Shown here in pieces: positions 4,116 through 57,582 of a DNA stretch of 64,000 bases (its first letter is position 1; the number at the start of each line of letters is the position of its first letter). The position numbers and the translations under genes are program-made. Below the pieces are notes generated by a model. The model was not told the origin of the DNA and made no database searches. It worked only from the letters and a program-made list of their open reading frames with translations. Location of the stretch: NCBI GenBank assembly GCA_051362555.1, contig JBPQGU010000016.1, forward strand, positions 310,001-374,000. The letters are read 5' to 3'. The DNA is from Lingula anatina. Lineage: Eukaryota > Animalia > Brachiopoda.

Positions 4116-4745
4116 AATGCACCCTGTCAATGTAAATACCTCTATTGCGAACGGTCATTATTTTATAGATTAGAATAAATCGTCGCAATTGTTGAATATA
4201 CCTTATTCTCACTTAGGATGAAAGGAACTAAATAAAACGGAGGAACTGTTTGAACTCGTCAATGCACGAGTGATTTTCAAAGAATAAAATAAAATAAGGA
4301 TACTACAAAATAAACACGTATAGACAAATTATATTACCTTTTGAGAAATACTGCGTAAAGATTTTAAGCTACGCGAGAAAGATAAGAGACTGGAATGAAA
4401 TAATTCGGTCTTTGGTGCAAATGAATTCTCTCAAATTAGTACTTCAAAAGCATAATATTGCACAAAAGAGTATATTTAAATGTACATTGTATTTATTTTC
4501 TTCTTTGATTTTTTTGTATTTCATGACTGCAGTGAATTCCCCCCCCCAAAAAAAAAAGAAAAAAAAAACATATTTCTCATGGTAACAAAAAAATTAATTA
4601 TAATACTGCATCTTACACTGAAAGGAAATCACACCTAGAATTATTTTTTTCATTATCTTAGTATAATATAACTGAATAAATTAAAACTTTCACTTGGGTA
4701 TGTATTATGAACCCTATAGTTTAATTATAATTTGTATATTTGCAG

Positions 4746-5413
4746 GTCTGAACGGCTACAACTACCCGGACCCTCACGCCCTGGCCATGGACTACAGGAG
4801 CCTTGGCTTCCGGGAGTGCGCAGCGGAAGTTGCGCGGTACCTGGTCACGGTGGAGGGGATGGACATCCAGGATCCGCTGCGCCTGCGCCTGATGAGCCAC
4901 CTGCAGTGTTTCAGCGCTCAAAGAGAGGCGGCGGCAAAGGCGAGCTATCAGAACTCGCAGTGGAACATGACGACCAGCCCTCATTTTAACATGAATATAA
5001 ACGTGAACAGTCAGTATTCAGGAAATCCCATGATTACGTCACAGCAGTCTACGGATCAACTTATGACGTCACATCACACTGCTTTGCCGACGTCATGCTC
5101 AGAGCCAAAATATAACCCCCACCAGGATGCAGTTAACTCCAACATAGGAAATCACCATTTACGTCTTCCAACAACGGCTAGTGCGGCGCCACAGATGTCA
5201 AGCGTTGCCTCATCTTCGTCTTCCGGTCATGCGCAGATGCCTCAGCTCTCTAGTTCCTTGGTTCCTCCGTCTTTACAGCACTCGTCTCAGTTTTCGCTAG
5301 GTATGAACTCTCTTCCCATGCTTTCACCGACAGGTCCTCACAACTACAACCCGTCTTCCTCCTCACACGCCGTCAAACCTTACAGACCCTGGGGAAGCGA
5401 ACTCGCTTACTGA
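4746..5413 (+). CDS. Hey: Hey terminal coding exon (Orange domain and YRPW motif)
   Basis: Acceptor ttgcag| at 4745. Encodes the Orange domain (LAMDYRSLGFRECAAEVARYLVTVEGMDIQDPLRLRLMSHL) and ends KPYRPWGSELAY*, the Hey-type YRPW tail. Candidate polyA signal AATAAA near 6727. Confidence 0.96.
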
Positions 5414-36700: not shown

Positions 36701-37579
36701 TTTCACTTCGAGTGATTCCTTCTCGGCCTGTAACTTTTTCTGTGAATTTTCCGATGTTTTTAGCTGAATTTCTGCGGATTTTAGCTGAATGTGTAGCTCG
36801 TCTACTTCCTTTTGGAGTTTCCGCTTGTCATCTTGTAAAACACGGGACGACTCGCAAAGTTTTTCCTTTTCCTTCTCTGTTTTTTTCTTGTCTTCTTCAG
36901 CGGCCGTCAATTTACGTTGATGTTCTTCTCCTTCCTTTTTAAGTCGCTTTGTTTCCTCCTCCAATTCGCCAACGGTGACAAGATGTTCTTTCTCCGCTTT
37001 TTTCTTTGAATCCTCAGCTTGTTTGATCTGATTTTGTAAGTCTTCTACGAGCTTCTTTTGTTTTGTAGACTCTTCTCGTGCTTGTGTGTCGGCAACTTGG
37101 CGCTCCTTTTCAATCTTTTTCTTTGAATCTTCTGTTATTTTTAATTGAGACTTAAACTTTTCAACGTCTTTCTTCAGCGTCTTGTTTTCTTCCTCCAACT
37201 TCTTAAGAGCGTCGGATGGTGGCGGGGGATCTGTTTGAGACGCCGCCGCCTTTGTTTCATGATGTACCTTTTCGGTTGATATCCGTTCTGTTTTAGTAAT
37301 TTGCTTTTGATTTTCGAGGACAGTTTTTGGTGACGATGGCGATTTCTTGCCCAGTTTATCTTGACCTGTCGTTTTAGCTGCAGGGCGACCCTTCACAGGC
37401 GATTCCAAAGACCTGTCGGGAGATTTCCGTAGCAACTGCTGCCCAAACGGTTTCACTGATAGCGTGTCCTTGGGAGACTCGGGTGTTTTCGTACCACTGC
37501 TACCGGTTAATTTCTTGCCGTTCTTATCCTTCTCAGTTGTTGTTGTTGTCGATGATTTAGTATCTGGCGCTTTCTTGGC
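8958..37579 (-). CDS. SOGA: SOGA/MTCL-family (microtubule cross-linking factor-like) giant coiled-coil protein, 14 exons, 5' end interrupted by a transposon
   Basis: Phase-consistent GT-AG exons in transcript order: 37579-35816, 27452-27354, 22010-20780, 19954-19729, 18616-18457, 18074-17901, 16181-16068, 15554-15411, 14995-14894, 14395-13652, 13101-12940, 11767-11694, 11248-10126, 9701-8958 (6861 nt including the stop). Family motifs: EMEEMKMEMDEIHDQFREEESVELQELQRELEIAAKNCRILQFKLRKSE and DLREQLRFTEEEVKVLRKKL. Confidence 0.85.
10126..11248 (-). CDS. SOGA: SOGA-like penultimate S/P/T-rich exon
   Basis: Overlaps ORF 10069..11181; phase-2 acceptor matches the 11694-11767 exon; donor gtaagc at 10125. 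Confidence 0.8.
13652..14395 (-). CDS. SOGA: SOGA-like internal coiled-coil exon
   Basis: Overlaps ORF 13607..14386; phase-0 splice sites on both sides; E/K-rich heptad sequence. Confidence 0.85.
15120..15420. repeat. 21-bp minisatellite with a 63-bp higher-order unit, overlapping a SOGA splice donor
   Basis: Units ctgtcaacacccacttgcata and ctgtcaacacccacctgtcca, degenerating toward 15120. Confidence 0.95.
15621..15875. mobile_element. hAT-like non-autonomous element
   Basis: Termini CAGTGGCGGAT...ATCCGCCCCTG; cagacc is present on both flanks (partial TSD). Confidence 0.7.
16350..16593. mobile_element. Degenerate palindromic MITE
   Basis: Arms (gatcga.ctaactccctgggg...gcttaaatgtctgtcac) are inverted against (gtgacagacgtttaagc...cccagggagatagatcgatcc). 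A related palindrome lies at about 49560-49785. Confidence 0.6.
19471..19724. mobile_element. PIF/Harbinger (Tourist-like) MITE with TTA TSD
   Basis: TIRs GGGACCGTTCACAATGGATT.TGTCGACCTAG; TTA at 19468-19470 and 19725-19727. Confidence 0.88.
20780..22010 (-). CDS. SOGA: SOGA-like exon with repeated SOGA-type coiled-coil modules
   Basis: Within ORF 20736..22043; acceptor tttcag at 22011, donor gtaag at 20779. Repeated L.xQL/M..xEEE.K.LRKKL motifs. Confidence 0.88.
25258..25343. repeat. (AAAT)n/(AAAAT)n microsatellite
   Basis: Visible directly in the sequence. Confidence 0.95.
26586..26880. mobile_element. Decayed copy of the 19471/28165 MITE family
   Basis: Shares gctaatgtgcac.aactccacgg.gactct.gctgaatg.aatca and the inverted arm gagagtccccttggagttagtgcacactagc. 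Confidence 0.6.
27155..27296. mobile_element. Foldback MITE, copy 2 of the 3942 family
   Basis: Near-identical to 3942-4115 with two fewer repeat units; TSD GGATCGCA / GGATCACA (one mismatch). Confidence 0.9.
28165..28421. mobile_element. PIF/Harbinger-like MITE, second copy of the 19471 family
   Basis: GGGGCCGTTAACAAT...ATTGTGAGCGGCCCC; flanks CAA / TAA. Confidence 0.85.
32522..32562. repeat. (TAA)n microsatellite
   Basis: Visible directly in the sequence. Confidence 0.95.
33680..33740. repeat. Compound (CT)n(CA)n microsatellite
   Basis: Visible directly in the sequence. Confidence 0.95.
34839..34900. repeat. Compound (GA)n(GATT)n(GA)n microsatellite
   Basis: Visible directly in the sequence. 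Confidence 0.95.
35816..37579 (-). CDS. SOGA: SOGA-like large 5' coiled-coil exon, cut at 37579 by the transposon TIR
   Basis: Part of ORF 35759..37858; donor GAG|gtgagt at 35815; contains the ELQRELEIAAKNCRILQFKLRK signature. Confidence 0.88.
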
Positions 37580-37816
37580 TACGGAAGCGTACAAGTGCCA
37601 CAACACACAACAAAAACACTCGACACACAACACAATCGCAACACAACACATTAACTTCTCGACACAACACCAAAGAAAATCGCGACACAACACATTAACT
37701 TCTCGACACCAAAGAAAGTCGCAACACAACACAATTAACTTCTCGACACAACGGAAATAGGTGGCGCTATCGGCGCGGACGTCTTGGAAAAGCCGCGAAA
37801 ACCCACAGAACGAAAG
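37580..37816 (+). repeat. Left terminal inverted repeat (237 bp)
   Basis: Base-by-base reverse complement of 55718-55954; three internal copies of attaacttctcgacac and many acacaac units. Confidence 0.97.
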
Positions 37817-38376
37817 TAGAAAATCAACTGCATTTTTATGAATTGTATTTTCACACATAAATCATTTCTCAAGCAACTCCGTAAAATGTAACTTTTTTGA
37901 TAATGTTAGAATGATTTAATTTAGTCTGTTATCCTTAGCTACAAGCAGAGGCTATCAAGTCCAGGCATCACATGTCCAGCAGCTGATCATGAGCTGTAGT
38001 GCTTAACCCACTTTAAGTGCAAATGGTCATAAATCAATCAATTGTCAAAGATACGCAATTTCGTGAGTAGAAGCAGTTCCACCCATTTGAGAAAAAATCC
38101 AAAAATTCTACAATCAAACAGATCATCTACGTTTATATTTATGCAAATTGTATAGGCAAGGACACCAAGAAACCAAGGTAAAAATATTTTACATTTTAAT
38201 GCAATTTTAAAGGTATATTTTATTGATAGAAGCTTGTTTCACCCTCAGTGCTTTGTTCTCTGAGCATGCCACATGGTTTAAACTAAACTGGCTTCTACAG
38301 ATAAATGTTATGTACATTTCTACCCGATTTTCTTCATATAAAGTGCACGTGATTAACATCAAAATATTTTTTTATT

Positions 38377-38557
38377 CAGGCCCGTAGCCGGGGGGGGCGG
38401 GGTGGGGGGGGGTGGGGGGTGGGGGGGGGGGGGTGTTAAAAAAAACCACCCTTTTTGCTGGTAAAAGGTCCACTCTGGGTAAAATTTGATCTAGGTACAA
38501 AAAGTTAACTTATTCAGAAAAAGGACCCCCATTTTGAAATTGCTGGCTACAGTCCTG
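38377..38557. mobile_element. hAT-like MITE (CAGGCCCGTAGCC...GGCTAC..CCTG family) inside the large element
   Basis: Core cccttttgctgg.aaaaggtccactctgggtaaaatttga is shared with about 41685-41844 and about 52758-52918. Confidence 0.75.
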
Positions 38558-39453
38558 TAATTACTACTTGTCACAGCATTTTATAAAAAGTTAGTAAAAA
38601 GGCAGTTTTAATTAGTTTATCAGGTTTTAAGTAGTGTCATATTCGGTTTTTTTTTTATTGATTGAAAATTATTGTTAGTAGAATTAAATGTCTGTTTGCT
38701 AAAGAACATATATATTTCTTATAGGACAACTTGAGATTACGTGCACAAGGGCAAAAGGAGCCAAAATTGTGAGTGTTAAACTGTACAATGTATTCGCTGG
38801 TTTATTTAAATTAGAGACATGTTATTAATAGTCCATTCTTTATGTTACAAATACTACATTAGAATTAATTTCTTATTTTTTTTTTTATATTTCTATGTCA
38901 CTACATTCATAGTCTGTTAAATGATTCAGTTTAATTAATTAGCAGTGTACAAATTGTCAAATATAATATTCCCCTGTCAGTCTGAGTACAGTCAAGACAT
39001 GTTAGTTTAAGACAATGTAACAAGGTCAGAATATTGGTGAGACCTTTTATTTTTTTCTTTGATTTTTGTTAATTTATTTTATTATTTCAGATTCACAGTA
39101 ATTTGGTATTAAAATACTCTGCTATTATCCTGGTACTACCTAACAGTAAATAAAGGTTCCATCATCTAATTACATATCATCTAGTTATGTCATCATTTCG
39201 ACAAATGCACGCAAACTCTACAATGTATGATTCATTTTTTTATGCATTGTACGTGTTTCCACACATAAACCTTGCTGGTCCAGAGGACCTGCATTATCAA
39301 AGTTCTTGTCGATCTTTTGGCTTTTCAGGTGGTCATCACCAGTTAGACCCGCAGTTTCCCCATGTCTACAGATTCAGAATGTGGTGCAAGTCTTTTAGGG
39401 CAATTTCTATGAATTCTAAAAAAAAATTATATACTTTATTTCAGTGTGATATC

Positions 39454-42400
39454 ATGTACTGCCCCTATTGTGGCAAGGAATTGCCCTGTGGATTTGAAAA
39501 TTTTTTATGCTGCACATTTTGCGGCAAATCACTGCCAGATTGGTCCAGCAGACAAATTGAAAACTCTAACAGAGGTAGGTTATGGATATCATTAATTTAG
39601 GAAATTAAAGAATATTCTACCTATCTAACATGTTCTACCTATCTGGACTCAGACTTTTATGGTTATAAGGTGACATCTTAATGCAGAATTTACATCTCTT
39701 TTCATGCCTATAAATTACAAGATTATTCCAATACAGATGAATTTTGACTGTGTAAATGAAAGGGATCCATTTTTGTTCTTGGTGAGGTACTTAACTTGGT
39801 TTGTCAATCAAAAGTTTGGATTAAAATCACAAGGGATTTCCAAGAGACTGCTAATAACCTGGTAATAGCCATTCTGTGGTATTTGTTCGGCTCATAAATG
39901 CATAATTTCCGAAACCAGACACAAGAGTCCCAAATGGATTTTAGGTTTGATAATTAATTATTATTTTATGAACACTTTTAATCCAGAAAAAGTGTTAAAT
40001 AGTGTTTGGAAAGGACATTAAAAATTTTTTTATATAGTTTTCAAAATATTGAATATTTTGATTAATATTATTTTGAATAATAAAGGCGAAAAACATTAAA
40101 TATAACTTATATTATCTAGCATATAGCTAAGTGCATATGATTAAGATTAATTTATAATATATTGGCCTCACAAATCTATATTAGATGGACTTGTTTTCAG
40201 TCTGTCTTTATTTGTTATGCAGACAAAACTGGGTGCAATATAAGAATGTCATTCTTAATTGATTAAATAATAATGTTATCTCCTTTTCATTTTCATTACA
40301 TCATTCCACAATTTTTTAAAATTGAAACAACAATATATCAAATAATATATTAATTAATAATATGGTAATGTTATTGTAGATGTGGCAAGTGCAGCCATTG
40401 CTGGTGTGAGTGGCCTCAGTTCAAGTTCAAGTGCAGGTTTCCTTGAGCCGAAAAAGGAAGGTAAGTAGCAACTTAATAAAACAAACTATAATAAATAAAG
40501 AGTATTATTATTATCATTATTATTAAAAAGCGTACAACTCTTTTGTCTTCTCGGGATAATATATTCCCTTCTAACCAATAGGTTGAGAAAAATCTCTGTG
40601 CTAGGGTCAGAAAAATACACATAAACCAAATTACATTACAATTTATTTCGCTATTTTAGCCTTTCAAAAATTTTAGCTTCCTTCAGTGCTGCATATAATA
40701 AGCAGACGTAACATTTAAACTTACAGTTGTCTGTGGCAGCCATATCTTTTTAACTTTCAGTTTTTATAATAACCCTGGAATTAGAATTTTTCCTCAGAAT
40801 AATTAAGTTTAGGGTTATTGCAGCTTAATTGCGATTAAGACAGAAATAAGAATTTTTTCAAGAAAATAATTCCCTGACTGCATCTTTATAATCAGTTTAA
40901 AGGCAGCAAATCGTAAGTTAGCCAGGGTCAAATTACATACATGTAGATTGAGTATTTGGGTTTATTGAATTAAAGCACTTTCACCTAATTTGGTGCCTTC
41001 CTTTAAACATAGTGGCTGGTGTTGATTGTTGAAATGTATTCTAAATTTGCTTATATTTCAGACCTACCCCAGCTGCTCCAAACATTCAAAAAAATGAGAG
41101 AAAAGAGGAACACTGAAAGGAACTCTTTTTTTACAAACAAGAAATCAAGATTTTCAATGAAGGACAATGAAGTGAATGTAAGTAATGAATTAAGGAGGGT
41201 AAAAAATCTTGAGGTCTCGGTACTTTTTGAAAAAATTAAACCAGTCTTCTTTAGGGGATCTTATATACCACACAATAATTGGTTATCTGGAATTTAATCT
41301 GACACTACCATCTATTCAGGTACTAGACAAAAAACTGGGTGAGAAAATTTGTTTATGTTTCTAAGTCCATGATTACTACTTAATATCACAAATGAGAAGC
41401 ATGACTTCCTAAATACAATACCGACTAAGGCCACACTTTTTTATTTTTATGGATGACATCCTCTGGGGACCCCGAAATCGGTGCGAGAGGGCGAAAAAAA
41501 AAAAAAAAACAGTCCAAAAAAAAAAAATGCTGCTTAAGTAAAGGAATGCTGTCAGTACACAGCTGGAAACTCAAATTTACCACAGAAACACGTATCAAAC
41601 TAACAATATGTCTTTATCCATGCTCTCAAAATATTAAAGCATTGTAAATACTTCGTAGAAAGGTAAAAAAAAGTCATGAATATATGGGCCCGTAGCCAGG
41701 GGGTTAGAAAGAACCACCCCTTTTGCTGGGAAAAGGTCCACTCTGGGTAAAATTTGAACTAGATACATTAAGTTTGTATGGAAAATGGTCCACTTTTTCA
41801 AAAAAAGAACCCCTTCCCTTTTGGAATTGCTGGCTACGGGCCTGATAGACATGCTGCATATTACCCAATCTATTTAAGGTTATTTCATGCATTTTGTTGG
41901 TATAACAATCAATAAAACAAATATCAAACAAACAGCATGTCTTTATTTGTACTCTCAGAATATTAAAGCATTATGAACACTACACAGAAATGTTAAAAAA
42001 TGATGCAAAGATATGCTTAATACTACCAATTCTATAAAAGGTCATTTCGGTCGATGCCATTTGGGCTACTTCGACTCACATGAAGCAGCCAAACTGTCGG
42101 GTGGCCTGACCGACCTACAGCCCACCAAATACCTCGACGCCCTGTCGACCCTTTTTTTTTTTCGCTACAAGAAAACCTGGTATGTGTTGCATTGGACAGA
42201 ATATCACTGAAATTTTCCGAGCGATAGTTGCTGGCCGCTGCCAGCCTTTCGCATAATTGTAAAAAAGTGGCCCAATATCAATGGCATAACAATCCAAAAC
42301 GACGGCCCCGTTCTCTTTATGACTTTATATAATTAATTGTCCTGTAATTTGAAAGTAATCCTAGAGATGAATTTGATGGCAAAGCGGCCACATTTCCACG

Positions 42401-45400
42401 TGGCAGTAATACGCATGCGCAGAAAGCACATTTTCCGGCAAATTCAATAACGACGTTTGCGACAACCGACTTCGATGGGGAGGGGGGGGGGTGTTTTTTT
42501 TTTTTTTTTTTTTTGGAGAACGGACGAAAATCGGTGCGCGCGCAGGATGTCATCCATAAAATTAAAAAAGTGTGGCCTAATCCAATCACTATGAAATCTC
42601 CCTGAAATGTTCTTTTATCAAAACATTTTAATCCAACCAAATATGTAGTGGTTTATGGGACACCTTCCATGAAATTAGATCTAATGCTACTATCGATACA
42701 TTTCAGCTAAGCAATTTTCCACCAAACCTACCCTGGAATAGTGCTAACACTTGCCAATTTAGCTAAATGCTAAAACTGGCTTAAACTGTCTAAACATAAA
42801 CGGCTAGATTTGACTCATTTTATACCATTCGGACAACAAATTGACAAAAAAGTGATGATTTGGCTAAGCGAAAAAAATTGCTAGCATTACCCCAGCTACC
42901 ACAAAACTGATAATCTCTATCAGTTATTTTAGTATTGTGTAAAATACAATATTATGTGGAGTTAAGTCTTCTATTGAAGGGTTTGTGGGTGGTGTTTCCA
43001 TATTATATTATATTTGTCTATCTGAAGGTTTAAACAGAATGTGGTGATAAAAAAATCAGTTTTTTTGTGTTATGCACAATCATGATTATTATCTAAAAGA
43101 AAGCCTAATCAAGTGATAATTTAATCCAAAGAATAATGTTACTTTTTCACACATGTGATTTCAGATCAGAGTGGGAATTCTCATACCTAAAAACGGCTGT
43201 TTAAAGCCTTTTAGGGGGAAGACCCTGAAAGTGACTGTAAGGCCAAGCTGGACTGCAGAGGAGACTTTGCAGGCCTGTTTGGCCAAACACAGAGCCCACA
43301 ATGGACATGAAATGGAAGAGGGAGGATACTGTCTGACTTATGACAGTGGCAAGGTGGTGGAACACCTCCCTGAAGGAAACCCCCCTGCCAAGTTCACCAT
43401 CAGGGGATATAAGGAGCAAATTCAAAAGGACTGGCAGAGGCTTGTTCTATACATTTGTGCTAGGGAGCACCTAGGTAGTATTGGTTTAACCCTTATCAGG
43501 AAAATGGGGGCCCAATGGACCCAAGCAGGTTGAATACATGTAGTTCTTCACAGCTGCACAATAAAGCTGTTCAGTATTATGGGGCATAATTAATTCTGAT
43601 AGGCATCCAGTGTCAGAGTTACATCATCTCCACCCAACACTTATTTCCATCGTTCCTCAAATCATACATTTGCATTGCATGTTTTTCTTAGATTGCAAAA
43701 TGTGCTACGGTGGCAAAATGTAGCTCTACCAACCCTAATGTAATCCTCAATAAGCATATCTGGCCAAGCTTGTCCCATGTTATTGACCTTTTTTGATGAA
43801 AAAAAATATATGAGAAAATTAACCTTTTTCTTTTGTATCCTAAAAGGATAGTGTAGGTCCAATGCATTCAATATAGCTCCTAATTGGTCATTAGTGCTAC
43901 ATTATGGTTAATTTTTAGTATCAATATATATTTGTGTAGAGGCAAATTTAATATTTTGTGGACTACATTTAAAATTAATTTATAACTATATTTTATTCTT
44001 AATTAACCTTTTAATAATTTCAGAAAAAGAAGAAGCACATGTAGAGATATTAACAAGTGATGAAGAGTCCGATTTAGAGGTAATACTTTAAAATTTAAAC
44101 TATTTTGGTATAAAACATGTCCTTTTAAGTAGGAGAAATTTCAGATCCCTATTACAGCTGGTACATATCTGACGTAGTCATTCTTTTCATTGTATTATGT
44201 ATCCCAGTTTTTTGCCAATATTAATATATGTAATGATGTTGTGGGCATTTATTATGACTGTACATCCTTATATCCTTTTTCTCAAGAAGTTAATCCATTG
44301 AAATATATTATTGATTAATGCACATGATGAAGTACTCAGCAGCTAAGATACATCTAGCAAATATAGGTAATGTATGTGAGGATAGTTGCAGAGATTGGTA
44401 GTGTTTTTTTTTTTTTTTTTTTCTCTTCTTGACTTTTCCTTGCATATTCTGCTTTACCACGTATTATTAATTGATAAAATGGCACTTCACCATAATAAAT
44501 GCACTTTCCCTTGCTTAGTTTCATTGTCACTTGCTATATCTTTTGTTTACTGTTTGTTCACAAAACTGTTATGTTATGGGGATGGGGTTACATCTAAAAA
44601 TTTTGTATAATGTTATTGGAGCACAGAAAGGAGAATTACTTGGCATTGTAGGCTAACCCACAAGCATAGTAGGTTTGCAATAGGGCATTTTTGTTTTTTG
44701 GCCTTTACACACACGCGCACGCGCACACACACACACACACACACACTTGTTTGGATTGAAACATCATTGATCAGGTTATAGACTTTAAAGTCTAATGGAG
44801 TGAAGCTAGTAATACAGATATATATATATGACATCATGTTTGGTGTTCAGCATGTACTGGTGTAACATGAAAATCTGACTCCCCCAATGAAAATTTGACT
44901 CCCCCTCCACAAAACTTCATAAATCTGTTTTTATTTTGAGTATATGACTGTGATCTTGTAGTATGTAAAATGGAGGATACATATACATAGGCACTTTTTT
45001 TGTAGTTTGCAGGTGAAAACTTTTATAATAAAATAAGAAAATTAAAAATGTGCACATAATGAAAATCTGACTCTCCCATCAAAATTTGACCCCCTCACCC
45101 CCCCCATAAATCTTATTTTATTTGGAGTATATGACTGTGATCTTTTAGTATGTAAAATGGAGGATACATTGGCCTTTTTTTTGTAGTTTACAGGTGAAAA
45201 TTTTCATGAAAAAATAAGAAAGTTAAAAATGTGCACTTAACTGCCCATTGTCTCCCCAAAGAAAAAGTGCCAATGTATCCTCCATTATGCATACTACAAG
45301 GTCATAGTCATTTACTGAAATAAAATGAGATTAATGAATGTTTTATTTGGGGGGGGGGGGGGGGGGGGGGAGTCAAAATTTCATAGGGGGAGTCACATTT

Positions 45401-48400
45401 TCATAATGAAAATCTGACTGGGGAGTCAGAATATCATGGTACACCGGTAGTCCTAATCTATGCTGTACAGAAATTCATAAGTGGACTACATGTATGTGCT
45501 GTATGCAAGACTAAAAAATGTTTTCATTGTTAGCTGTGGGGGTACACTCATTAAATCTCTGTTCCATTCCCCAAACTGTACCCCCACGGGGACGACGCAT
45601 GGGAGAGGAGAGACCATGAAAGGATTACAGGGTCTTCCTTTTATGTAGGTCCACCATATTTAGGTCTCGGCCTTACTATACCTCGGCTCTTCTCAATGTG
45701 AATGCTCTCTGAGAGATCCCAGAGTAATTTGGGTTAAGAAAGAATATAGAGTGAAAATAGTTAAATCAAAATAGTCTCTTTTTTCATCTACTATGCTAGG
45801 ACTTTTTGATCAACCCTTGCACATGCCTAAATAAGGGAGGGCCCATTGCTCTAATAAGTAACATGTAACACATGATCGCATTTGTATGGGCTAAAGAACT
45901 ACTCTGTATTCTGTAAGGGTATTCTGGAGGTATTTTCCTCGGTCTTGATTTTGAGATTTCTGGACAGTATAATTCACACAGTTTAGATCACAAAAACTCT
46001 TTCAGTTTATTTCCTCTTTAAATTAATATACACATTCTTTGCATAAAGACCAGTAAACATGTCATCCTTAAGACTTGTAGTATTAAATTAATACTTAAAA
46101 CAACATACATATGATTCTGTCCAGCGCACCTCTATATAGATACTAGAAGTTGGTATTCAATCTTTATAAACCCTACCTCATTAATGATTGCAGCTTATTG
46201 TATTTAACTTGAGGCTGAAATATTTGACACACGCTAAGCTTTCATATTGGCTTGTTATTTTGTGTTTTATGCTTTTTTGGTGTTATAGTTGTACTTGTGG
46301 TTTGCCCCTCTATCTCTTTTTAACAAAGAGCATCTCTGTTTAACAAAAACATTATACTGTACACAATATGTTAATGAAGACTTCATGCTGTTATGAGAGT
46401 TGGTAGTAATCAAACATGTGTTTAAATATATTTAGTAATAATTTTTCAACATACCCTACCTCCCTTGTATATGTATACATCTTTTTGCTGTAGTTTAGAG
46501 CATCACTTTATATTGGCATTAATTTTGTAGGAATGGATACATACTAAAGAAGTTGGCTGTAGAGTTGATGCAGGAACTCCAACTGTGAGCTTCAGGGTTG
46601 ATGCCTCCAGCACTAGGTTTGATGTGATTATTAATACACTTAGAACTAGAACAATGTTACAAAGAAATACAATACATCTTGAACCTCATATTTGTTTGGA
46701 GTTAGAAACTATGAAATAGCTGGTACAAGCTGCCCGATGTTGCAGCCTTTATTGCAAACTTTTTAAAGATGTGTGTATTATCTCTGGATGATTGTACATG
46801 TAACATGAAGCAGATTTGTATCATACCTTGCAGTGTCAGGTAAAAGATGAAATTTATTATTATCTCTTAGCAAACTTCAAGACTATTTTTACTGGCTTTG
46901 TATGTTCAAGATCTAGAGCCTAGGGTATTAACCAGTTCAAAGAAGTGAACCAAATCAAGATTTTGTTTCCAGACATCTCTGTTTATGAACCAATTAATTT
47001 TGTGTGCCTCAATCAATGTTGCAGGACTGAACAGTCATCATATGAGACTTATGTTGAGGCATTACAAGATGATCCAGATGATTACCCAGAAGAGGTGTGG
47101 TCCACAAATGTGGAAACCCAAGATACAAATGCCAGTCCTGAGCAAGAAATGGATCTCACAGCTCTTGTCATTGCTTGGCAAGGTAAAACAGAATACAGAT
47201 CCTTTTTTACTCTATGTTACTTCTTTCAGTAGCTGTGCAATATACCCTTTTCATCCAAAATTGCTGTAAAATAGTCAATTCAAAACTTTTTAAAGTAAAA
47301 AACTATACCCTGGCATTACAATGCCATATACATGTACACTGTACTAGTAACATACACAACAATTACAAGGTGTTTTAGGGTTTAAATTATGTGATTGTGT
47401 AGACATACAGATGTGTGGTTGACATATGCATACAGTATATTTAGACAAGAGATTTAAATTTTGAATTATAGAACAAAATGCCAAGACAGAAGATGAGGAA
47501 CTGATTGTGCGGAGGAGGAAACTTTTAAACAGTGTCCTATCTGCCACCAAGAGAGAAGGATTTTCTTTTTTTAAAATTCCCAAAGTGGAATTTTCCGGAG
47601 AGAAAGCCCTAGATGATGGTGGGCCACGAAGAGAGTGTTTTAGGTATATATATATATATTTATTGATTGGTATTGATTGATGAAAACCATTTATTTACCT
47701 AGGTTAATGCTGTATATTATGGTCTGTTTATGCATATTTACTCATGAATTGTTTTAACTTGTATTATGTGTGATGAAAACATGCTTTAAATTTTATGTAT
47801 CAATGCATTTAAAAATGGGTTTCCTACACAGGTATCTGTTATGGCAAATATTTTGCAATTTTCAGACTACTTATGAAAGAAATTTCATCTCTGGATATAT
47901 TTGAAGGCCCTCCAGAGGCCCTTGTCTTTAGACATAATGTCACTAAACTGGAGGCAGGAAGCCACCATAAATCAGGGCAGCTGGTTGCCTGGAGCATTCT
48001 CCATGGTGGACCTGGGTTCCCCATGCTCCACCCCCTGCTCTTTGAAAAGATGGTGGGGAGGGAGCCAAAGAGGGAGGACATTCCTAAGTATATAGGATTA
48101 CTTTTGCCAGAGGAGAAAGATAAGCTCAACAAGGTAATAACTGTACAAGTAAAATAAGTTCAAAGCACTTCTTTATTTGTAATTATCAATTACAAATGAA
48201 AAAAAAAATGTTTCTTTTTTCTTTACCTCTTACACAACCTCTTTTCCCAACACATCTAATGGTTCTACATTAATTAATTTATCAACAGAATGAATCATTT
48301 AAATAGCAGTATAGTATCCACTTCAAAATTAAAGTAAATGTACATATGCTAATTGCAGATATATTGCAGTGATAAAACAGAATTTGACGCAGTGGTGGCA

Positions 48401-50120
48401 GCTGAAATGGATTGGATATGTGACCAGGGGATTTTTAAGTTTTCTTTCGAGGAGAAGGAAACAATGATATTTCAGCTTCTGCTGAACATAGTATATTACA
48501 AGTAAGATATATAAATTTGAACCCTAGTCAGGAAACAATCATTGATTACTTGTCACTTAAAAATGATTTTTAAAAATACTTCTATTACCCAATGTAATTA
48601 TGTTTATAGATGTATATAGACATGTCAAATTGCACTTCGTTTGCAATTTGTTACACAAAGCAAGGGGGATTGATGTTTGAGGTATTTATCAGCGGCAGTG
48701 CTTTACTGATGTGGCAGCAAATAAGGAACAGTTTACAATGTTATCTTTGATCTACCACTCTAAAGGAATGTAATTGTGATTGATTTGATGCGTAATTGTT
48801 AAATTGTGGCCAGTGCCATTCGCTGTCTTGTGACTTGGGTATGTCACAGTCAGGATACTATATCCAAGCAGCAGCTCCTTAACAAATAGAAGGCTTTAAG
48901 TATAATATGTCCATTTCTAACTAATTTTTTATAACATAGTAATATATGGGGTCTTTACTAAAAACAATTTTTTTCTAACCATCATTTCCTAATTGTCTGA
49001 GGGCAATTTTTATTGAGGATTTGAAAAGAGTAAAAACCCTAGAAACTGTTGATTGCAGGAGAGTTGCAGACTAAATTTGTTTGCAATTTGTTTTTTCTCC
49101 CCTTATGAATTCCTCTATGTGAAATCCTTAAAAGTGCAAAAAGAAAATTGATAATATAGAATTAAACAAAATAATTCTTTTATATTTCTAAAATCTTTTT
49201 ATATTATCATTATGACTTTTTTTTGTTCTTCAGGAGTAAAACAGAAGCGGATGAGTTTTTGGGTGGACTGAATAGTATAGGGCAGTTGGGGGTGCTGATG
49301 CACAAATACCCTTCCTCTTTACAGAGGTTGTTTGTGCACAGTACCTCTGCTGTCACAAGGATGTGGTTTAAAGATAACATGTCCTATGTCCACAGTGACA
49401 ATAGCGCTGTCAAAGATGTTGAAGAAGATACAGTACTGCTGTGGGAAAGATTCCTACAGGACTGTGAGAGTAAGTAATGGCTAAAGAGAGGGAAAAAAAC
49501 AGTTGTCAAAATGTTTGATTACAAATTAATGTCTATAAAGGAATGTATAGTGTCTAAGGGAGTGACCCCACAACCCTATAGGTCTAGGTGGATTGATCCA
49601 TCTCTATGGGGTCTTTGCTAGATTGCATTCAGTTTGAGCAGCTTAAATGTCTGGGGCGCCTACTGAAGCTACTAGTGGGTAATTAGCTCTCCTGCAGACC
49701 ATTAAACTGCTTAAATTGAAAGCAATCTGACGAGAGGCCCCGTGAAGATAGATTGACCCAGCTAGTTGAACAGGGTTGTGGGAAGGCAGTCAAATACCAA
49801 ATCCAGGGCTACATTATGACTTGTATAGTTTCATTTATAGTGATATGTTTAGTCATATAATAATAATAAGACTCTTCATTCCAGGTGGAAGGTCACAGGT
49901 CACACTTCATAAAGTTTTGGGCTTCATAACCGGAGCAGAAGAAATCCCACCAGGTGGTTTCGAAAAAAAGTTAGAGGTTGGGTTCTTCATCCCCAGTGAA
50001 AGGTGTCGGTTCCCCTGGGCATCAACATGTGGCCTGTATTTACACCTGCCCACGGGAGATGACCTGGGAGATCTACTTGTCACAGCAATCCAAGAAGGAA
50101 TGGGGTTCTCCATTTCATAA
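39454..50120 (+). CDS. Transposon-borne HECT-domain E3 ubiquitin ligase (G2E3-like HECT) with an N-terminal double zinc ribbon, about 660 aa, 12 coding exons
   Basis: Phase-consistent exons 39454-39574, 40380-40460, 41062-41177, 43165-43474, 44024-44079, 46531-46616, 47025-47182, 47472-47643, 47866-48133, 48359-48501, 49234-49469, 49885-50120 (1983 nt, no internal stop). Motifs: CPYCGK..CTFCGK; VEFSGEKALDDGGPRRECF; ILHGGPGFPML; FITGAEEIPPGGF; PWASTC with the catalytic Cys; C-terminal GF. Confidence 0.85.
41429..42577. mobile_element. Non-autonomous TIR element with TAA TSD (Zator- or PIF/Harbinger-like) in a HECT-gene intron, with a hAT-like MITE nested at about 41685-41844
   Basis: TAA|GGCCACACTTTTTT.ATTTT.ATGGATGACATCCT ... 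AGGATGTCATCCATAAAATTAAAAAAGTGTGGCC|TAA. Confidence 0.8.
44861..45443. mobile_element. Ginger1-like non-autonomous foldback element
   Basis: TGTAAC...GGTACA termini; flanks CTGG / CCGG (4-bp CCGG-type target); repeated atgaaaatctgactcccc subterminal motifs; internal duplicated and inverted 150-bp blocks. Confidence 0.65.
49560..49785. mobile_element. Degenerate palindromic MITE in the last HECT-gene intron
   Basis: cccacaaccct ... agggttgtggg arms; internal similarity to 16350-16593. Confidence 0.55.
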
Positions 50121-50164
50121 GTGCAGATTATACAACATATTGTTTATACACAGCACTGTAATTA

Positions 50165-50364
50165 TCTTCTCACCTAGTGAACGTTGTAGGTTCCCTTGGG
50201 CATCAACTTGTGGGCTATATTTACACCTGCCTAAAGGTGAAGAGGACCTGGGAGGATTGCTGGTGAGATCTGTGACTGAGGGAATTGGCTTAATTCTCAA
50301 TTTCTTAGCAACAATACGAACAGTATGGATTTGTTATGTAAAGAAATTCTACCATGGAATTTGA
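50165..50364 (+). pseudogene. Second, diverged copy of the HECT catalytic C-terminus
   Basis: Encodes FSPSERCRFPWASTCGLYLHLPKGEEDLGGLLVRSVTEGIG, just after the stop codon of the first copy. Confidence 0.8.
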
Positions 50365-51558
50365 AGACTAGCTGATAGTAGAATTTGCACTCTAGCTAAT
50401 AGTATGTTATTATGTGCACGGATATATTCAAAGATCCTATGGGCTGCAATAGCAAGACAGTTTTGTTTTCATCACATAAGCAGCTGTAAGGCAACTTCAC
50501 AGATGTACATGTGCTTGCTTGCTTAAATGATGTTTGGTAGTTTTAACTATGGATTTAAACATTTTTATGTTTGGTGTGCAACTGTAGCGTATACAAATAA
50601 TATAACATTTGTTTTGGAAATGTAAAGACCATTTATTTTTTTAGACCTTTTAAAACATGCCAATGGTGGAAAAAATAATGTAGAACAATACAATTATAAA
50701 GAAGATAGATGAGAGAAACTGCATGGCTCTGCAAAGTATATAATACACACTTGAAAAGGTGTTACAGACAATCTGTAAGGAGTATTGTTTGTTTATTAAG
50801 CAGATTAGCATTATTGAGATTTCAGCAGCAAGACAGCTTGGCAGGACATAAATGTGGCCTAACACTCAATAAATACACACTAAGGACATATCTAAATAGA
50901 AAAAGTAAGATGTCATATCATTTTTAATAAATGATAATGAAAAAGCTTTAAAAGATTATCATTCAATGACAGGGTTTAAACGTTATGTAATATCATGGAA
51001 ACATTAAATAAAAAAACTGTACATAATTGTAAAAAATAAAATTCTACAAAATAAAGGCAGGCAAGGAATTTTAAACAGTTTTATTGTAGTCCTTTGATTA
51101 CCTGTGCCCCTATACATGTAAGTGGGCAAGAAGACCCCAACTCCATACAAAACTCCATACACAGACTAATGTGCTAATTTTATGCAAAATTCTGCCTCAT
51201 ATGCGCCCCGATTATGGATGGAAAATGAGACCATGCAGGAAAGAAGTCCCAACTCAAATGATATTACATTAACTGTGCATTGGAAGGACCCCTGAATATA
51301 CAGTTAAACCTGAAAGCTCAGCATATGGGCAACATCATTCAAGGACATTTGGGAAGAAAGACAAGATACCATATTTACATATGTAATTGACTGAGTAGTC
51401 ATTCAACATGGTCAGTGCCTTCAAATGTATATCAGTTTGAGTGTATTATGTAAAAGAGAAAAATGTCAGGACTACATGTATCTACTTACTAAATGTACTA
51501 TTTTATTCAGCATTTATCCCCCTTGAAACAGCTTATCGTTAGATTGTTTTGCTCTATA

Positions 51559-53837
51559 TTAATCACAAGTCAATGCTTTAAGTCTTAAGTATAACTCCAA
51601 TGCATCGTCAACATTTTCAGGGTATATAAGGTTGTAGGTTTCCATAAGAAACTGCAAAAACTCTTCTAGCTCCCCATCCTGGCACACTGAGTTAGCCTCT
51701 GTAAAATTGTAGAACATGTCCCAGTCCTGGTGACTTACATCCACCTTACAGTCCCTACCATTTGGTGGCAAAAAGTACAACTCATCTGGGATCCCTGCTG
51801 GACAAGAAGCATATCGGCTTGGTCTAATTCTGTGTGTATTCCAAAACACTGCTGCTTCTTGGAGATCTTTCCTCAACAGATCCATAAAACAAAATCTCAA
51901 ACATTCTATTTGTAAACTGTTGCCAACAGTAAAGTGACCCTCCTCAGTAAGATCTTCAAAAAGGTTAATCCAATATGTTGAACGGTTTCTTCTGAGAAAA
52001 GACCACCACTGCTCAATCCGTTGATTGCTTGGCGATGTTCCATATCTATGACCGTGTGAGCTGTTTGTCAAGGAACACTGAACTGGGGCCAACAATGAAA
52101 TTTCAGTGCCACAATCTGTCCTCACAATCTTAGGGCATATCATACCCATTTGTCTCACTGTGTCTAAAAAATACTTACATATTATAGAACTCTTGTGATT
52201 TGTGTGGTTACATTCCAACCACATTATTCTCCTAGAGAAACCATCGATGCAACCATTAATTTCAAAACCATATATTTTCAGTTTATCATAGCCGTCTACA
52301 TGCCAGCAGTGGTTTGGCCCTTGACTGATGTAGGTTCTTCTTTGTAAGCGACTCAAGCGTCGGTTTTCTACACTAATGGGGTCAATCTGACGCAATAATA
52401 ATCTCACCATTTCTTGAGTAACTCTAAGATGGTATTTCCTAATCAGCCTTTGCCACATGGATCTATATCCTCCAAGTCTACCTAGCAATTTTAATTTAAA
52501 AATAAAAAAAAAATGTTAGACAAAATTTGTAAATTGTTACAATTCGTTATTAATATAAAGGATTAAACAGACCTTAATCTCACTGCACATTGTACATGTA
52601 AAAGAAAAGAAAAGTTTCATGACAGACGACTATAGTAAAAAAAAAAACTATATACTGAGCAGCTAAATGTGATGCAATAAAAAATTGCCCCAAAATAATG
52701 TGGGTCTAGTTAATAGAGCTCAACAACCGCTGTATTATATTGACTAAATATACATAGCAGGCCCGTAGCCAGCGGGGTTTCGGGGGGTTTGAAAGAACCC
52801 CCTTTTTGCTGGAAAAAGGTCCACTCTGGGTAAAATTTGACCTAGGTACATAGGGGTTATATGGTAAAAGGTCCACTTTTTCAGAAAAAAGAACCTCCTG
52901 TATAGCGCCCCTCCCCTACAAAAAATATGTACATGTATGATAGTGATATATGTGATGTATGTGCAATAGCACACCAGATGACCATTTATGACCATTTATG
53001 GCCATAAATGACCATTAATATGAATGAGGTCTAATTATGATACCTGTTCCTTCCAATTCTCTTCTTATAGCTTGATAGACTAAGTGAAGAGGTGACTGGC
53101 TTGCAAAACCTCGTCTTGATAACCCATAAGACCTGATAAAGATATACAGTTTTAAACTTGCACAAAATTTAATCTCGCTGAATACTCTTCATTAACTCAT
53201 ATGACTGCTAAAATATGTTTTGGTTGTCCAGTCTAATTTTAGCTGGTGAAATTTATAAAAAGGGGAATATGCAATGAAAAATGGCTCACCGATTTTGGCT
53301 GCATGCTAAAATGCAGGTAGACCTTTAACACATTTTATCAACCTACTTATATTTTGCAAATCTGAATATGATATCAGTCTATCTTAAACTTATATACAAT
53401 TTAATCTGCTTTTCAGCTAATTTCTTACTGTTTCATGTATGCAAATTACAGACTTTAGAAAGAACTGTCACAAGTACAAAGACTTAGAAGTAGGTTTGTT
53501 TTAAGTACTGTCTCATTACTAGTACTTCACTTGGAAATATTTGCCTCTTAATGAGATTTGTAAATGAAAAAGGAAAAGGTTGGTAACAATTACTGCCCAC
53601 ATGGTCAATTTATTATCAAATTTCTCGATCATCTTTAATTGTACAAGTACCTGATCCGCCGTTTAAGGGTCCTTAGGCTCAAATGAATCCCATGGTACAA
53701 CCCAAGAAAAATAACAATAGCTTTGTATTGGAAGCCTTGGCTGAAGTAAGCTTCGATTGCTTCTTGTTCAGATCTAAAATTAAATGTAAACTTAGAGCAT
53801 TGAGAATATTCCTTCAAGCACTTTAAATCTGAATTAG
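51559..53837 (-). CDS. Integrase-like (rve / IS3-IS481 clan) DDE transposase, at least 3 exons, about 400 aa; N-terminus unresolved
   Basis: Exons 53837-53651, 53132-53044 and 52481-51559 join in phase. HTH-like EAYFSQGFQYKAIVIFLGLYHGIHLSLRTLKRRI and GGYRSMWQRL segments; catalytic motifs WHVDGYDKL, CIDGFSR, VRTDCGTE, NQRIEQWW; N.HRIR tail. Confidence 0.9.
52758..52918. mobile_element. hAT-like MITE (38377 family) in a transposase intron
   Basis: Begins CAGGCCCGTAGCC and shares the family core; the right end is degenerate. Confidence 0.7.
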
Positions 53838-55717
53838 CTGTAAGAGAAACTTACACTCACAAAGTTTACACCAAATTTACAACATTTACAAAGGAAAATA
53901 ACCAATTTTGTATAAGTAAGATTAGTGTACTAGTACTATTTGTGTTTCAGATTCATGCTGCACAACCTGGTCAGTGCTAGGCCCTGTCTAGAATTGGTGT
54001 CTACATTGTCATAGAAGGTGGCCATTTGTGCATACTGACCTAAACTCAATGAGTGGCAATGATGGTAATCCATTTGCCCCTTGGAAACTTTGCCACAGTA
54101 ATGTCAATATCAAGAGAACCATGGCATATGCCCACTTGTTATCTGAAATATAAAACTTAAAAATGTTGAACATTTCAAAATAAAATTTGCATCACAAATT
54201 CTAGCTATAAATGCTAATTATAAGAAAGCGCAATCCTCTAAAAACTTCATTCATGGATTTTAATACATATAGGCAATAATAACAATACAGCAGTTTGTAC
54301 CAGTATATGTTGTTCTGAATCGACTGCACCTTCATGGTTATTTCCAACTATTTAATTGACTATTAAGTCAATCTGTTGAAGACGTATTTTGTGTTTTAGT
54401 CATTACATTTCTATACTACCTTGTATTGTTACTCCCATGCACCAACCCTCCCCCCCAGGGACAGATCCAGAGTTATTTTCTGACTGTCTTCCGAATTGTC
54501 TTTGTTGATCCATCCTCTATTTTTGACCGTCCTTTGACAGAAAAAAATAGATACCCGTCAATGTAAACTTGAAAATCTGACCGTCTTCTGGAAGACCCAG
54601 AAGACATCCTAAATCCGCCCCTGCCCCCCCCCCTCCTTAGTTATGTGTATAGTCTTTGAAAATCATAAAGAAGAACTGTTGTAAAAGCTGTACATGTTTT
54701 TTGAAGTTCCATATGGTTCAGTGATTGTTTCCTTATTTCTCAAGGCATTTATAATAATATGTCACTTTTAGTTCCAAGAAAAGAGCACTTTTGAAAACAT
54801 TGTATTACAGAGAAGTTTTATTATCAGATCATTTGCTGTGAATGTTCTATGCTGAGCGCGTGTGTGTATGTGTGTGTGTGTGTGTGGGGAGGGGGGTATT
54901 GATGTTGAGAGTAATGAAGCCAGGGGATATATCATAGCTGGGGACAATCAGTGCGGGTTCAACGGAAAATATTAGTGGATAATTATGAAATTTTAGAAAA
55001 TTTTCTTTACTTGTAGACAGTAACAATATACCCAATACCCAATTTGACATTTCCAAATTAAACTGAATAAAACTAAACTTGTTACTGTGCTCACATATTT
55101 TGAAATTCCAATATTGTAAATGCAACATAAATATTTGATAATCAATGCAATGTATGTAAATAAATTAGTAAAGTAAATGCATAACACTTGAAACTTAATT
55201 TGCTCCTCATGCTTGTACTAGTAAGCATGTAATCTCAAGGGCTGTTCTCTATATATTTAATATATTAATAATGGCATAAAAACATTAAATATTGTCAGTG
55301 CAGCAGGACATTAACCTGTTACACTTAACCAAGTCCTCGTAATTTTAAACAATGCCAATTACTAATATTTACTAATTTTTGTTATTAGCAACGTGCAAAG
55401 AAAGAAGAAATCACTTTAAAAATTACAGAGCATTAAGATTTGTTAATTATAACAAGGACCATGTGGTATTCTCAGAACAAAGACCGATTTCAATCTTTTT
55501 GATAAGAAATATACCAGTAAAATTAAACTAGAAAAGAAAATACATGTATGCTTACCTTGGTTGCTTAGAATCGTTGTCTATCTGGCTTTTGTAGAGATTC
55601 AAGATGGTTTGTTAAAATTGGACGGTTGAAATTGATTTTTGAACTTTACAAATGATTTACGTGTGGAAATACAATGCATAACATGCAGTTGTATGTCCGA
55701 GAGTTTTTCTCTGTGCG

Positions 55718-55954
55718 CTTTCGTTCTGTGGGTTTTCGCGGCTTTTCCAAGACGTCCGCGCCGATAGCGCCACCTATTTCCGTTGTGTCGAGAAGTTAAT
55801 TGTGTTGTGTTGCGACTTTCTTTGGTGTCGAGAAGTTAATGTGTTGTGTCGCGATTTTCTTTGGTGTTGTGTCGAGAAGTTAATGTGTTGTGTTGCGATT
55901 GTGTTGTGTGTCGAGTGTTTTTGTTGTGTGTTGTGGCACTTGTACGCTTCCGTA
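55718..55954 (-). repeat. Right terminal inverted repeat (237 bp)
   Basis: Reverse complement of 37580-37816. Confidence 0.97.
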
Positions 55955-57582
55955 GCCTCCGGTCGAATACAAGCCTTTACGGACCAACCAAAATTAAATG
56001 CCCGTGTCTGGTGCGGGTGCTCTATTTTCGTGGTTCTCTTACATAATTGCGCGGTGCTTCGTTAATCTGGCAACAAATGTTCGCTACAGATGAGATGCAA
56101 ATAAAACGGTATAATGATCGACGCGAAAATGCCTTTAATCTGTTTTGATGCTTTCCATGTACGCTTATGTACTATAATGTATAGGATTCGAAATTATCAA
56201 CATCGGATTACTTAAAATAACCATCCAAAGATCATGTACATTACGGCGCGTACACACAATTCCTTAGATTTGTGGTTTTTAATGAACTTAAATAAAGATG
56301 CTGCGATAAAGACCATTCAACTTAATAAGATATATATATAGGGCGAAAAAGAAATTGAGACGTCCCTGGAGTCGAGACAAAATCTATGATAAAGAATCCC
56401 GATTCTGTAATAACAGCTAAGTTTGTCTCTTTTAAATTAATTTGAATTGTGCTCTTTAACAAGAGAGGCAGTCAATGTGAGGGTCGGTGGGACATTTAAT
56501 GGTGGGGGTCGTGTATTTAAAATCACAGATTTCGGGCATGAAAGAAAATTTTGTGGTTTCCGAGGTCAGTTTGTAAGATCAAAATTCAGGCCAGGGCGCT
56601 GTTCTGAATCTTTCCCTTGAAGTGGTAAATTGAAACGTGGATTTTAGCCTTTAATTTTGCCCAAGGGAGAACGGCGTTGTGTAACAGTAAACTGCACTGG
56701 TATGCATAGGCCGACTTATACTACGTAGTTATACTGGATCTCTACAATAGTCTAGATGACTGGTGCAAAAATTGCTCAAAAGGTGGAAAAAGCATGAAAC
56801 TTGGCACAAATGTTCTTTGGACTATGCTGATCATTTTCAAGGGCAGTGCCCAAAATTTCAAAGCGTTGCTTAGCAACCGTTGCTAAGGAAGTGATTTACC
56901 TTAGTAACAAGCTAATTGGACCTTTCTTGTTCAGTTTAAATGATTTAAAAAGGCTTTTAATAATGTTTCAAACCATCAGAACTATCACAATACTATTTTA
57001 AGACATTAAAAACCCAAGTAAACCATTGCAACAGTTGCTAGGCAGCATATTACCCTAGCAACAAGTATTTAACATGCTGAATTAGCCCAGAAAGTTAGTG
57101 TTAAGGTTGATTTTTTGTTGAGTTCCTCTAGACAGAGGGGAGTTCAAATGTCATTAATAATATCATTGATGTAAAAAAAAACAAAAACATTTTTACACCA
57201 TCTTTTATGGAAAATAGTTTTTTTAATTTTTTTCAATTTTTGAGTTTTGACATAATGGTTGTGATAAGATTTCACCTGGGGTTAAATTGAAATTTTCCTG
57301 AATTTCACTCAAAGAACCAGTAATGTTTGCCAAAAGGGATAAGAAGTTGCTTTTAGTATTTTTAATCCACCTTTTGTTACTACCGATTCCTGACATTTTG
57401 CCAAGAAAAACGCTCTCCACTTACTCTTATTTTCTTCATAAAGAAGTCTCTTAAGCCATGTAAAGTTTAGGGCCTTGGAAAAATTTTTATTTGCTGTACC
57501 TTTTTCCGTCCATTTTTGTAATCAGACGCCATCCTTGCTCATTTTATTTTTTATCTTTTTCCATTCCTGATAAAGTTAAATA

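Follow-up and report, generated by a model that had tools for sequence, protein, structure and literature searches.

The 64,000-bp window of the Lingula anatina assembly analysed here (GCA_051362555.1, contig JBPQGU010000016.1, positions 310,001 to 374,000; window positions are used throughout) contains an 18,375-bp DNA transposon that is almost certainly a member of the IS3EU/GingerRoot group. The element carries two convergent genes, one for an integrase-like transposase and one for a predicted E3 ubiquitin ligase of the HECT type. A HECT partner is common in this clade of IS3EU and apparently unreported in the open papers searched. We consider it reasonably probable that we are dealing with an IS3EU/GingerRoot element in which the convergent predicted ligase is a regular part of the clade and promotes the spread of the element by attaching ubiquitin to a host protein that keeps the element in check. 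The features discussed are listed in Table 1, and statements on the literature refer to the accessible parts of the papers cited.

Structure and family placement of the element

A preliminary description, made from the sequence alone, had proposed a giant transposon with two intact genes between identical ends. The two 237-bp terminal inverted repeats (TIRs) were verified to be exact reverse complements, and they form the only perfect inverted-repeat pair longer than 100 bp in the window. The element starts TACGGAAGC and finishes GCTTCCGTA, and about three copies of a 44-bp repeat are found in each TIR. Both multi-intron genes are free of internal stops, as had been described, with open models of 405 amino acids (aa) for the transposase and 660 aa for the HECT protein; the exon models were built from the sequence and RefSeq predictions, with no RNA reads. 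The coding share is ~3.2 kb out of 18.4 kb, the large size being due to introns with nested high-copy repeats. That this is a mobile TIR element is supported by the TIRs, the transposase and the presence/absence of the element at the locus (see below).

IS3EU elements have TA..TA ends and usually 6-bp target-site duplications (TSDs), and they have been merged with GingerRoot (PMC10045372); the terminal signature is TAYGG..CCRTA (PMC12730594), and two proteins are encoded (PMC8232023). The TACGG..CCGTA ends of the Lingula element fit the printed signature, and its first 9 bp are the same as in 5 of the 14 IS3EU rows shown in Table S1 of PMC12730594, namely those of the fungal families IS3EU-2, -5, -7, -10 and -11_PGr. 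IS3EU/GingerRoot TIRs are longer than 30 bp, as are those found here, and the two open genes correspond to the two encoded proteins. The transposase is a DDE enzyme of the IS3EU type, without an HHCC motif. Its core motifs WHxDGYDKLK, GCIDGFSR, DxGTEN and NQRIExWW match the IS3EU rows in the supplement of PMC10045372 and are absent from the Ginger2 and IS3 rows of the same alignment. The nearest printed rows are IS3EU-5_DR, IS3EU-1_HM and IS3EU-2_SK; by a hand count on the published alignment, ~57 of 102 aligned positions (~56%) are identical to IS3EU-5_DR1p.

Four complete relatives with TACGG..CCGTA ends were found among the related loci described below: L008 (5,112 bp), L014 (2,885 bp), L054 (5,980 bp) and L070 (9,394 bp). 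All four are flanked by 6-bp TSDs, and all except L014 enclose a HECT gene. Two other loci were not counted as complete elements: L092, whose two ends share no TIR, and L006, which has a TGATC-type inverted repeat at the contig ends.

The preliminary description had concluded that the element fits neither IS3EU nor Ginger and belongs to an unnamed family. A distinct superfamily could be argued from the window locus, which has no 6-bp TSD, from a length of 18.4 kb that exceeds the 8-13 kb of the fungal IS3EU rows and the 4-13 kb of GingerRoots seen in print, and from the pairing of IS3EU with HECT, which was not found in the papers searched. The ends, the transposase core, the two-gene layout and the 6-bp TSDs of the relatives are, however, all those of IS3EU, and they leave the idea of an unnamed superfamily barely tenable. 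YqaJ partners belong to ISL2EU. The YqaJ-type partner that had been ascribed to IS3EU could not be traced, the word not being found in the passages of IS3EU-related literature, among them PMC9587614, that were searched for it.

Ginger1, Ginger2 and IS481EU have an integrase-like DDE transposase and TIRs in common with the element. Ginger elements have TGT..ACA ends. Membership in Ginger1 or Ginger2 was rejected on the TAC..GTA ends of the element, on the Ginger2 rows, whose cores are without its motifs, and on the 6-bp TSDs of its relatives, Ginger TSDs being of 4-5 bp (PMC10045372). Similarly, IS481EU has TNT..AYA ends, a single gene and protein, TIRs mostly <50 bp and TSDs of 4, 15 or 25 bp (PMC10045372); the element differs on the first three of these.

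Against Pfam, the transposase matched PF24764 (rva_4, E=3e-32), with rve under its cut-off. For the helix-turn-helix-like N-terminus described initially, the HTH_21 match was weak (E=0.064, on protein record P0002). D199, D259 and E293 are kept in 99-100 of 100 aligned sequences. The RefSeq transposase XP_013411268.1 differs from the window copy at two residues, one of which is the N264I substitution; judging from conservation, the transposase of the window copy may be impaired by this change. The transposase profile gave 0 matches to PDB sequences, and of 10 pattern matches in viral contigs none was a relative. The N-terminus of the model (54122-54060, minus strand) is a signal-peptide-like hydrophobic stretch, odd for a nuclear enzyme. 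Among the 50 aligned transposases with at least 15 N-terminal residues, such a stretch was seen in 13 and a zinc ribbon in 22.

The HECT gene and its predicted product

The HECT gene model is identical to RefSeq XP_013411196.1 (P0123) of L. anatina. PF00632 was detected at E=6e-13 (49.5 bits, cut-off 23.9), and a profile of the HECT domain matched solved ligases in the PDB with E-values down to 2e-15, Cys631 falling on the catalytic motif. By these Pfam and PDB profile matches the domain is C-terminal, as in the class of bilobed HECT domains of ~350 aa. With cellular HECT E3s (AREL1, Rsp5, the NEDD4 family and G2E3) the protein shares the N-lobe DxGGPxRE, the C-lobe Cys motif and the C-terminal position of the domain; unlike them, it is much more divergent and has another set of N-terminal domains. 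As far as the sequence can tell, the element's HECT protein is likely to be an active E3.

The protein had been described as a zinc ribbon, an unknown domain and a HECT domain in series. This order holds, with CxxC..CxxC motifs at the N-terminus, and a fold can now be proposed for the unknown domain, which is predicted to be ubiquitin-like. Its AlphaFold2 (AF2) model has the topology beta-beta-alpha-beta-beta-alpha-beta, as in beta-grasp folds. In VIA-align, plexin ubiquitin-like domains were best (Z 8.2, root-mean-square deviation 3.4-3.9 over 84-88 residues) and ubiquitin-like folds made up most of the 50 rows, with middling Z values that speak to the fold only. Foldseek placed LC3, GABARAP and ubiquitin on top, none of them at E<=0.001.

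At E<=0.001, 243 relatives of the domain were found. Among 140 that were aligned, Pfam detected HECT in 8 and CUE in 6, and our own HECT profile matched 34 of 149. Moreover, a profile of the domain matches convergent open reading frames (ORFs) at nine transposase loci. The zinc ribbon is also present in the partner genes of L003, L008, L009 and L051, with Zn_Ribbon_1 over its cut-off in the first three. At L011 (3225-4889) the HECT partner has a UBX domain, also a beta-grasp, in place of a domain of this type.

The best full-length relative of the HECT protein is a clam record named 'G2/M phase-specific E3 ubiquitin-protein ligase-like' (P0126, 29% identity). This name is likely a similarity label, since the true G2E3 arose only after the chordate/echinoderm split and is a single chordate gene (PMC2837046). 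It is the one name that lends support to the preliminary suggestion that such elements may explain some scattered 'G2E3-like' annotations.

HECT as a regular partner of the transposase clade

Related loci were fetched from metagenome contigs with the 100-sequence transposase alignment, and the best 80 of 483 were analysed. When all 176 ORFs of at least 100 aa outside the transposase were screened, Pfam HECT was detected in 19 loci, each time downstream and on the opposite strand. With a HECT profile built from these 19 loci and 10 relatives, 30 of the 80 loci were positive (25 of 67 clusters), 19 of the 30 by construction. The share of HECT loci rises with the length of downstream sequence, to 23 of 32 where at least 2 kb is available and 15 of 17 where at least 3 kb is. 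All 42 HECT domain hits were downstream of the transposase and convergent to it; no HECT was found upstream in the 18 loci with at least 1 kb upstream (66 kb upstream vs 157 kb downstream in all). Co-occurrence of this integrase clade with HECT genes, which the preliminary description had put forward for checking, is found in these metagenome loci, and the frequency and fixed convergent layout of the HECT gene support its assignment to the element and not to a syntenic host gene.

The catalytic Cys is kept in 30/30 HECT relatives (27 by pattern, three by alignment). The ratio of non-synonymous to synonymous substitution rates (dN/dS) is significantly <1 in 7 of the 11 pairs of HECT genes compared (one value is 0.19, p=2e-15); the remaining four are too little diverged to be informative, and the pairs are not independent. 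HECT is very probably the element's own selected gene. The alternative of a passive cargo gene, taken up from a host gene and of no benefit, like Pack-MULEs or plant GingerRoot fragments, draws on the capture of gene fragments by GingerRoot (PMC6839031) and on elements that are without HECT or carry other genes. However, a whole gene is found in a single position and orientation across ~25 families whose transposases have a mean identity of 45%, and the Cys is invariant in C-lobes that are on average 26% identical. Passive cargo is largely refuted by purifying selection and is highly improbable.

In a transposase tree of 34 rows, made from the loci and proteins gathered here with no Repbase references (L070, whose best transposase piece is <180 aa, was left out), HECT-bearing rows are spread throughout and HECT-less rows are scattered (6 changes vs 6.5 when shuffled), a pattern compatible with an old partner that has been lost in places. 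The distances of the HECT and transposase genes show a weak, positive correlation (Mantel rho 0.14, p=0.04, 23 rows). Between L021 and L031 the synonymous divergence (dS) is 1.49 for the transposase and 0.27 for HECT, and for L021 against L031 and L054 the HECT dS is 0.17-0.27 with a transposase dS of 1.5. This contrast, together with the weak Mantel rho, suggests that HECT genes are exchanged between families.

Several observations weigh against a HECT ligase as a regular and working part of these elements, beyond the limits on the profile and on the dN/dS pairs given above. The HECT match of the Lingula protein is divergent for PF00632, and the model of the full-length protein (10 sequences) had a predicted local distance difference test (pLDDT) score of 40 and was unusable. 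An aromatic residue at position -4 from the C-terminus has a role in HECT ligases, and it is found in only 21/30 HECT relatives. HECT is absent from the complete element L014 and from 9 of the 32 loci with at least 2 kb downstream. In a second collection of 13 loci with 5-kb flanks, HECT was detected in one, upstream and on the same strand, and a convergent protein kinase in three; L062 also has a convergent kinase. The missing 6-bp TSD at the window locus, described in the next section, is a further point against the explanation favoured here.

The loci of the second collection (L081-L093) hold intron-split eukaryotic transposon genes within records titled as bacterial or archaeal metagenome-assembled genomes. 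These sequences are likely eukaryotic host DNA in bacterial bins.

Insertion site and the missing target-site duplication

The window copy was inserted recently into a gene of the SOGA family. The left TIR adjoins a host coding exon that is joined to 27423-27441; PF11365 was detected in another exon of that strand, from which we infer that both belong to one SOGA-family gene. Among ten matching DNA runs, nine share 0.42-0.91 of sequence words and one, X10, shares 0.07. X10 differs by 2-4% from the window in the host exon and may represent another population. In this run the host exon is covered, the transposase depth is zero and the contig match breaks exactly at 37579. In the RNA run X15, 65 reads exit the exon at 37579 into in-frame letters that are absent from the window.

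No 6-bp TSD was found at the window locus, the flanks having only 'GC' in common; shifting the ends inward by 2 bp gives 'TA' instead. Judging from where the RNA and DNA runs stop matching, the host exon probably continues in element-free alleles, with the right flank here being foreign. Most likely, the TSD is missing because the sequence to the right of the element does not continue the interrupted exon. Such a flank could stem from a deletion, from recombination between two copies or from an assembly mis-join.

Alternatively, the element could represent a separate variant whose TSD is 2 bp long (GC or TA), cleanly inserted at a host splice acceptor, so that 37579 would be a splice and both flanks original. 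Either choice of ends puts AG directly before the host exon and leaves the frame open or gives a potential acceptor, and the X10 contig stopping at 37579 could continue into the right flank. The candidate acceptors are poor, however, GAG (T 0.31, G 0.25) or TAG (T 0.25, G 0.38, AG nearby), whereas the element's own introns are 16/16 YAG with T 0.38-0.69 and G <=0.19. This variant also demands an insertion precisely at an exon edge, and the four complete relatives, which share the same 5-bp ends, all have 6-bp TSDs. We regard it as distinctly unlikely and keep to an insertion within the coding exon with a foreign right flank.

An older protein record (P0124) joins chitin-synthase-like exons, not found in the window, to transposase exons, and hints at a second insertion site. 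In X10 and X18, two runs without the transposase, joints from 39225 to 49824 leave out the greater part of the HECT gene, and the depth is several-fold over its 3' end (49070-50401); these may come from related deletion derivatives. Three RNA runs had next to no reads on the element exons. They are uninformative on the expression of the element, since the X15 junction reads are about all of the element-free form.

Other features of the element and the window

The observed/expected (o/e) ratio of CpG is 0.31 in the element interior (37817-55717), 1.67 in the TIR, 0.83 in a host intron and 1.48 in the right flank. The depletion of the interior relative to the host intron would fit long exposure to methylation. 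A 30-40-bp piece at 39230-39270, 5' of the HECT start, resembles the subterminal sequence immediately internal to the two TIRs, perhaps as the remnant of an earlier element end. Another TIR element, with arms of 304 bp (89%), was found at 56769-60360; nested in it, at 57580-59246, is one whose 31-bp TIRs are perfect. The long coiled-coil SOGA-family gene interrupted by the element extends over 8961-37579 on the minus strand, and an exon of a Hairy-orange (Hey-like) gene was found at 4685-5413 on the plus strand. A tRNA search of 37000-64000 found none.

Table 1. Features of the IS3EU element, its insertion site and related loci (window positions unless a locus is named; MITE stands for a miniature inverted-repeat transposable element).
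Feature	Position	Strand	Remarks
Whole IS3EU element	37580..55954	.	18,375 bp, ends TACGG..CCGTA
Left TIR	37580..37816	+	237 bp; ~3 subterminal 44-bp repeats at 37619-37752; CpG-rich (o/e 1.67)
Right TIR	55718..55954	-	exact reverse complement of left TIR; weaker similarity ~60 bp further inward
HECT E3 gene (predicted)	39454..50120	+	660 aa, 12 exons, open, GT-AG introns, PF00632
HECT exons 1-6	39445-39574, 40380-40460, 41062-41177, 43165-43474, 44024-44079, 46531-46616	+	
HECT exons 7-12	47025-47182, 47472-47643, 47866-48133, 48359-48501, 49234-49469, 49885-50120	+	
Zinc ribbon CxxC..CxxC, N-terminus of HECT protein	39454..39522	+	from sequence; Zn_Ribbon_1 weak
'Unknown domain' exon, predicted ubiquitin-like beta-grasp fold	43165..43474	+	AF2 pLDDT 92.6, VIA-align Z 8.2
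Predicted catalytic Cys631 codon (PWASTC)	50028..50030	+	aligned to AREL1 catalytic motif (AHTC); Phe at -4 from C-terminus
Diverged duplicate of 3' end of last HECT exon	50164..50300	+	67% aa identity over 48 aa (last 48 codons)
Transposase gene	51559..54122	-	405 aa, open; exons 54142-54040, 53773-53651, 53132-53044, 52481-51559
Transposase DDE codons	D 52296-52294, D 52116-52114, E 52014-52012	-	33 residues from second D to E
N264I in DxGTEN motif	52099..52101	-	N in 99/100 aligned sequences and in RefSeq copy
Nested high-copy MITE-like repeats, HECT intron 3	41428..42890	.	inverted repeats; depth 3,000-54,000 vs ~40 in DNA run X10
Further nested repeats	near 38430-38560, 44867-45404, 52780-52890, 54400-54623		high depth in run X10
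Host coding exon ending at left TIR	35816..37579	-	coiled-coil SOGA-family gene; RNA depth, loose ends at 35816 and 37579
Right flank	55955..56400	.	no 6-bp TSD with left flank; likely not original neighbour of host exon
Convergent Ser/Thr protein kinase in usual HECT slot	L062:2956-3747, L086:2432-2833, L087:6915-7343, L089:7003-7341		

Proposed working and comparison with known systems

By analogy with its family, the enzyme encoded by the transposase gene would attach to the 44-bp TIR repeats with the helical region at its N-terminus, cleave at the TA ends by means of D199, D259 and E293, and insert the element with a 6-bp stagger. On the ligase side, a host E2 ubiquitin-conjugating enzyme would load ubiquitin onto Cys631, from which it would be transferred to a substrate, as expected from HECT chemistry (PMC9547173). 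This substrate, which would be a host silencing or repair factor that restrains the element, may be picked or delivered by the ligase's zinc ribbon and ubiquitin-like domain. We hold the choice of a host restraint factor tentatively, with somewhat more doubt than confidence. We favour a host substrate over the transposase of the element itself since the HECT genes seem to pass between families whose transposases differ greatly; that a kinase can fill the same slot also fits a host substrate better.

The same element and ligase could instead act on the transposase or transpososome, limiting its dose or clearing it from the DNA after strand transfer. Ubiquitin-like, UBX and CUE domains have an established role in hand-over to the proteasome or p97, and the ubiquitin-like domain found here, like UBX or CUE in relatives, would suit such a step. 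The two genes are, moreover, linked in one fixed convergent layout, and their distances are weakly and positively correlated. The apparent exchange of HECT genes between families with distant transposases and the occupation of the slot by a kinase speak against a substrate of this kind, which we consider unlikely, and we retain a host protein as the proposed target.

Precedents exist for parts of this scheme. Fungal IS3EU elements carry TET/JBP as cargo, plus an alpha-kinase in opposite orientation (PMC12730594), and Helitrons carry deubiquitinases (PMC9741609). A conference remark raised the possibility of transposition being regulated by captured host proteins (PMC3520738). With the fungal TET+ IS3EU elements (PMC12730594) and Styx/REP9 (PMC10853768, PMC8232023) the Lingula element shares its ends and a modifying-enzyme gene opposite to the transposase; their partners are an alpha-kinase, TET/JBP or unknown ORFs, while here it is HECT. 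Copies of Styx, a fungal IS3EU-like element, are found at translocation breakpoints (PMC10853768). The VTD/OTU deubiquitinases of Helitrons are also enzymes of the ubiquitin system with intact catalytic residues and a proposed role in aiding transposition (PMC9741609). They remove ubiquitin and are fused in the rolling-circle RepHel ORF, whereas the enzyme described here is predicted to add it and is encoded by a separate gene of a DDE element.

IS3EU is poorly characterised and known mainly from Repbase (PMC11934779, PMC8232023). With the published IS3EU/GingerRoot elements (PMC10045372, PMC12730594, PMC6839031) the Lingula element has the TA..TA ends, the core motifs and two genes in common, and its relatives the 6-bp TSDs. 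It differs in its 18.4-kb, intron-rich structure, in being without a 6-bp TSD and in its second gene, the combination of zinc ribbon, ubiquitin-like domain and HECT being unnamed in the accessible parts of these papers. The word HECT was not found in those parts of PMC6839031, PMC11934779 and bioRxiv 10.1101/2021.09.26.461848 where it was looked for. No publication on HECT as an IS3EU partner was found in the open literature; Repbase or Kojima 2019 may name the second protein, and if either already names a HECT partner, the finding reduces to one more member of an already known kind.

A broader reading would give IS3EU a dedicated convergent slot for exchangeable protein-modifying enzymes (HECT with a ubiquitin-like domain in most of this animal clade, Ser/Thr kinase in others or, in fungi, alpha-kinase), with the HECT form as an undescribed, widespread E3 family that degrades or disarms silencing factors of the host and is the source of many 'G2E3-like' genes of fish and invertebrates. 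This is speculative and in our judgement more probably wrong than right. At the locus itself, a host coding exon is interrupted by an insertion of the presence/absence type. When HECT or G2E3-like genes are counted in the genomes of aquatic animals, transposon cargo may be among them. Finally, with a selected HECT gene that has a ubiquitin-like domain, it could be tested directly whether a DNA transposon of an animal exploits the host ubiquitin system.

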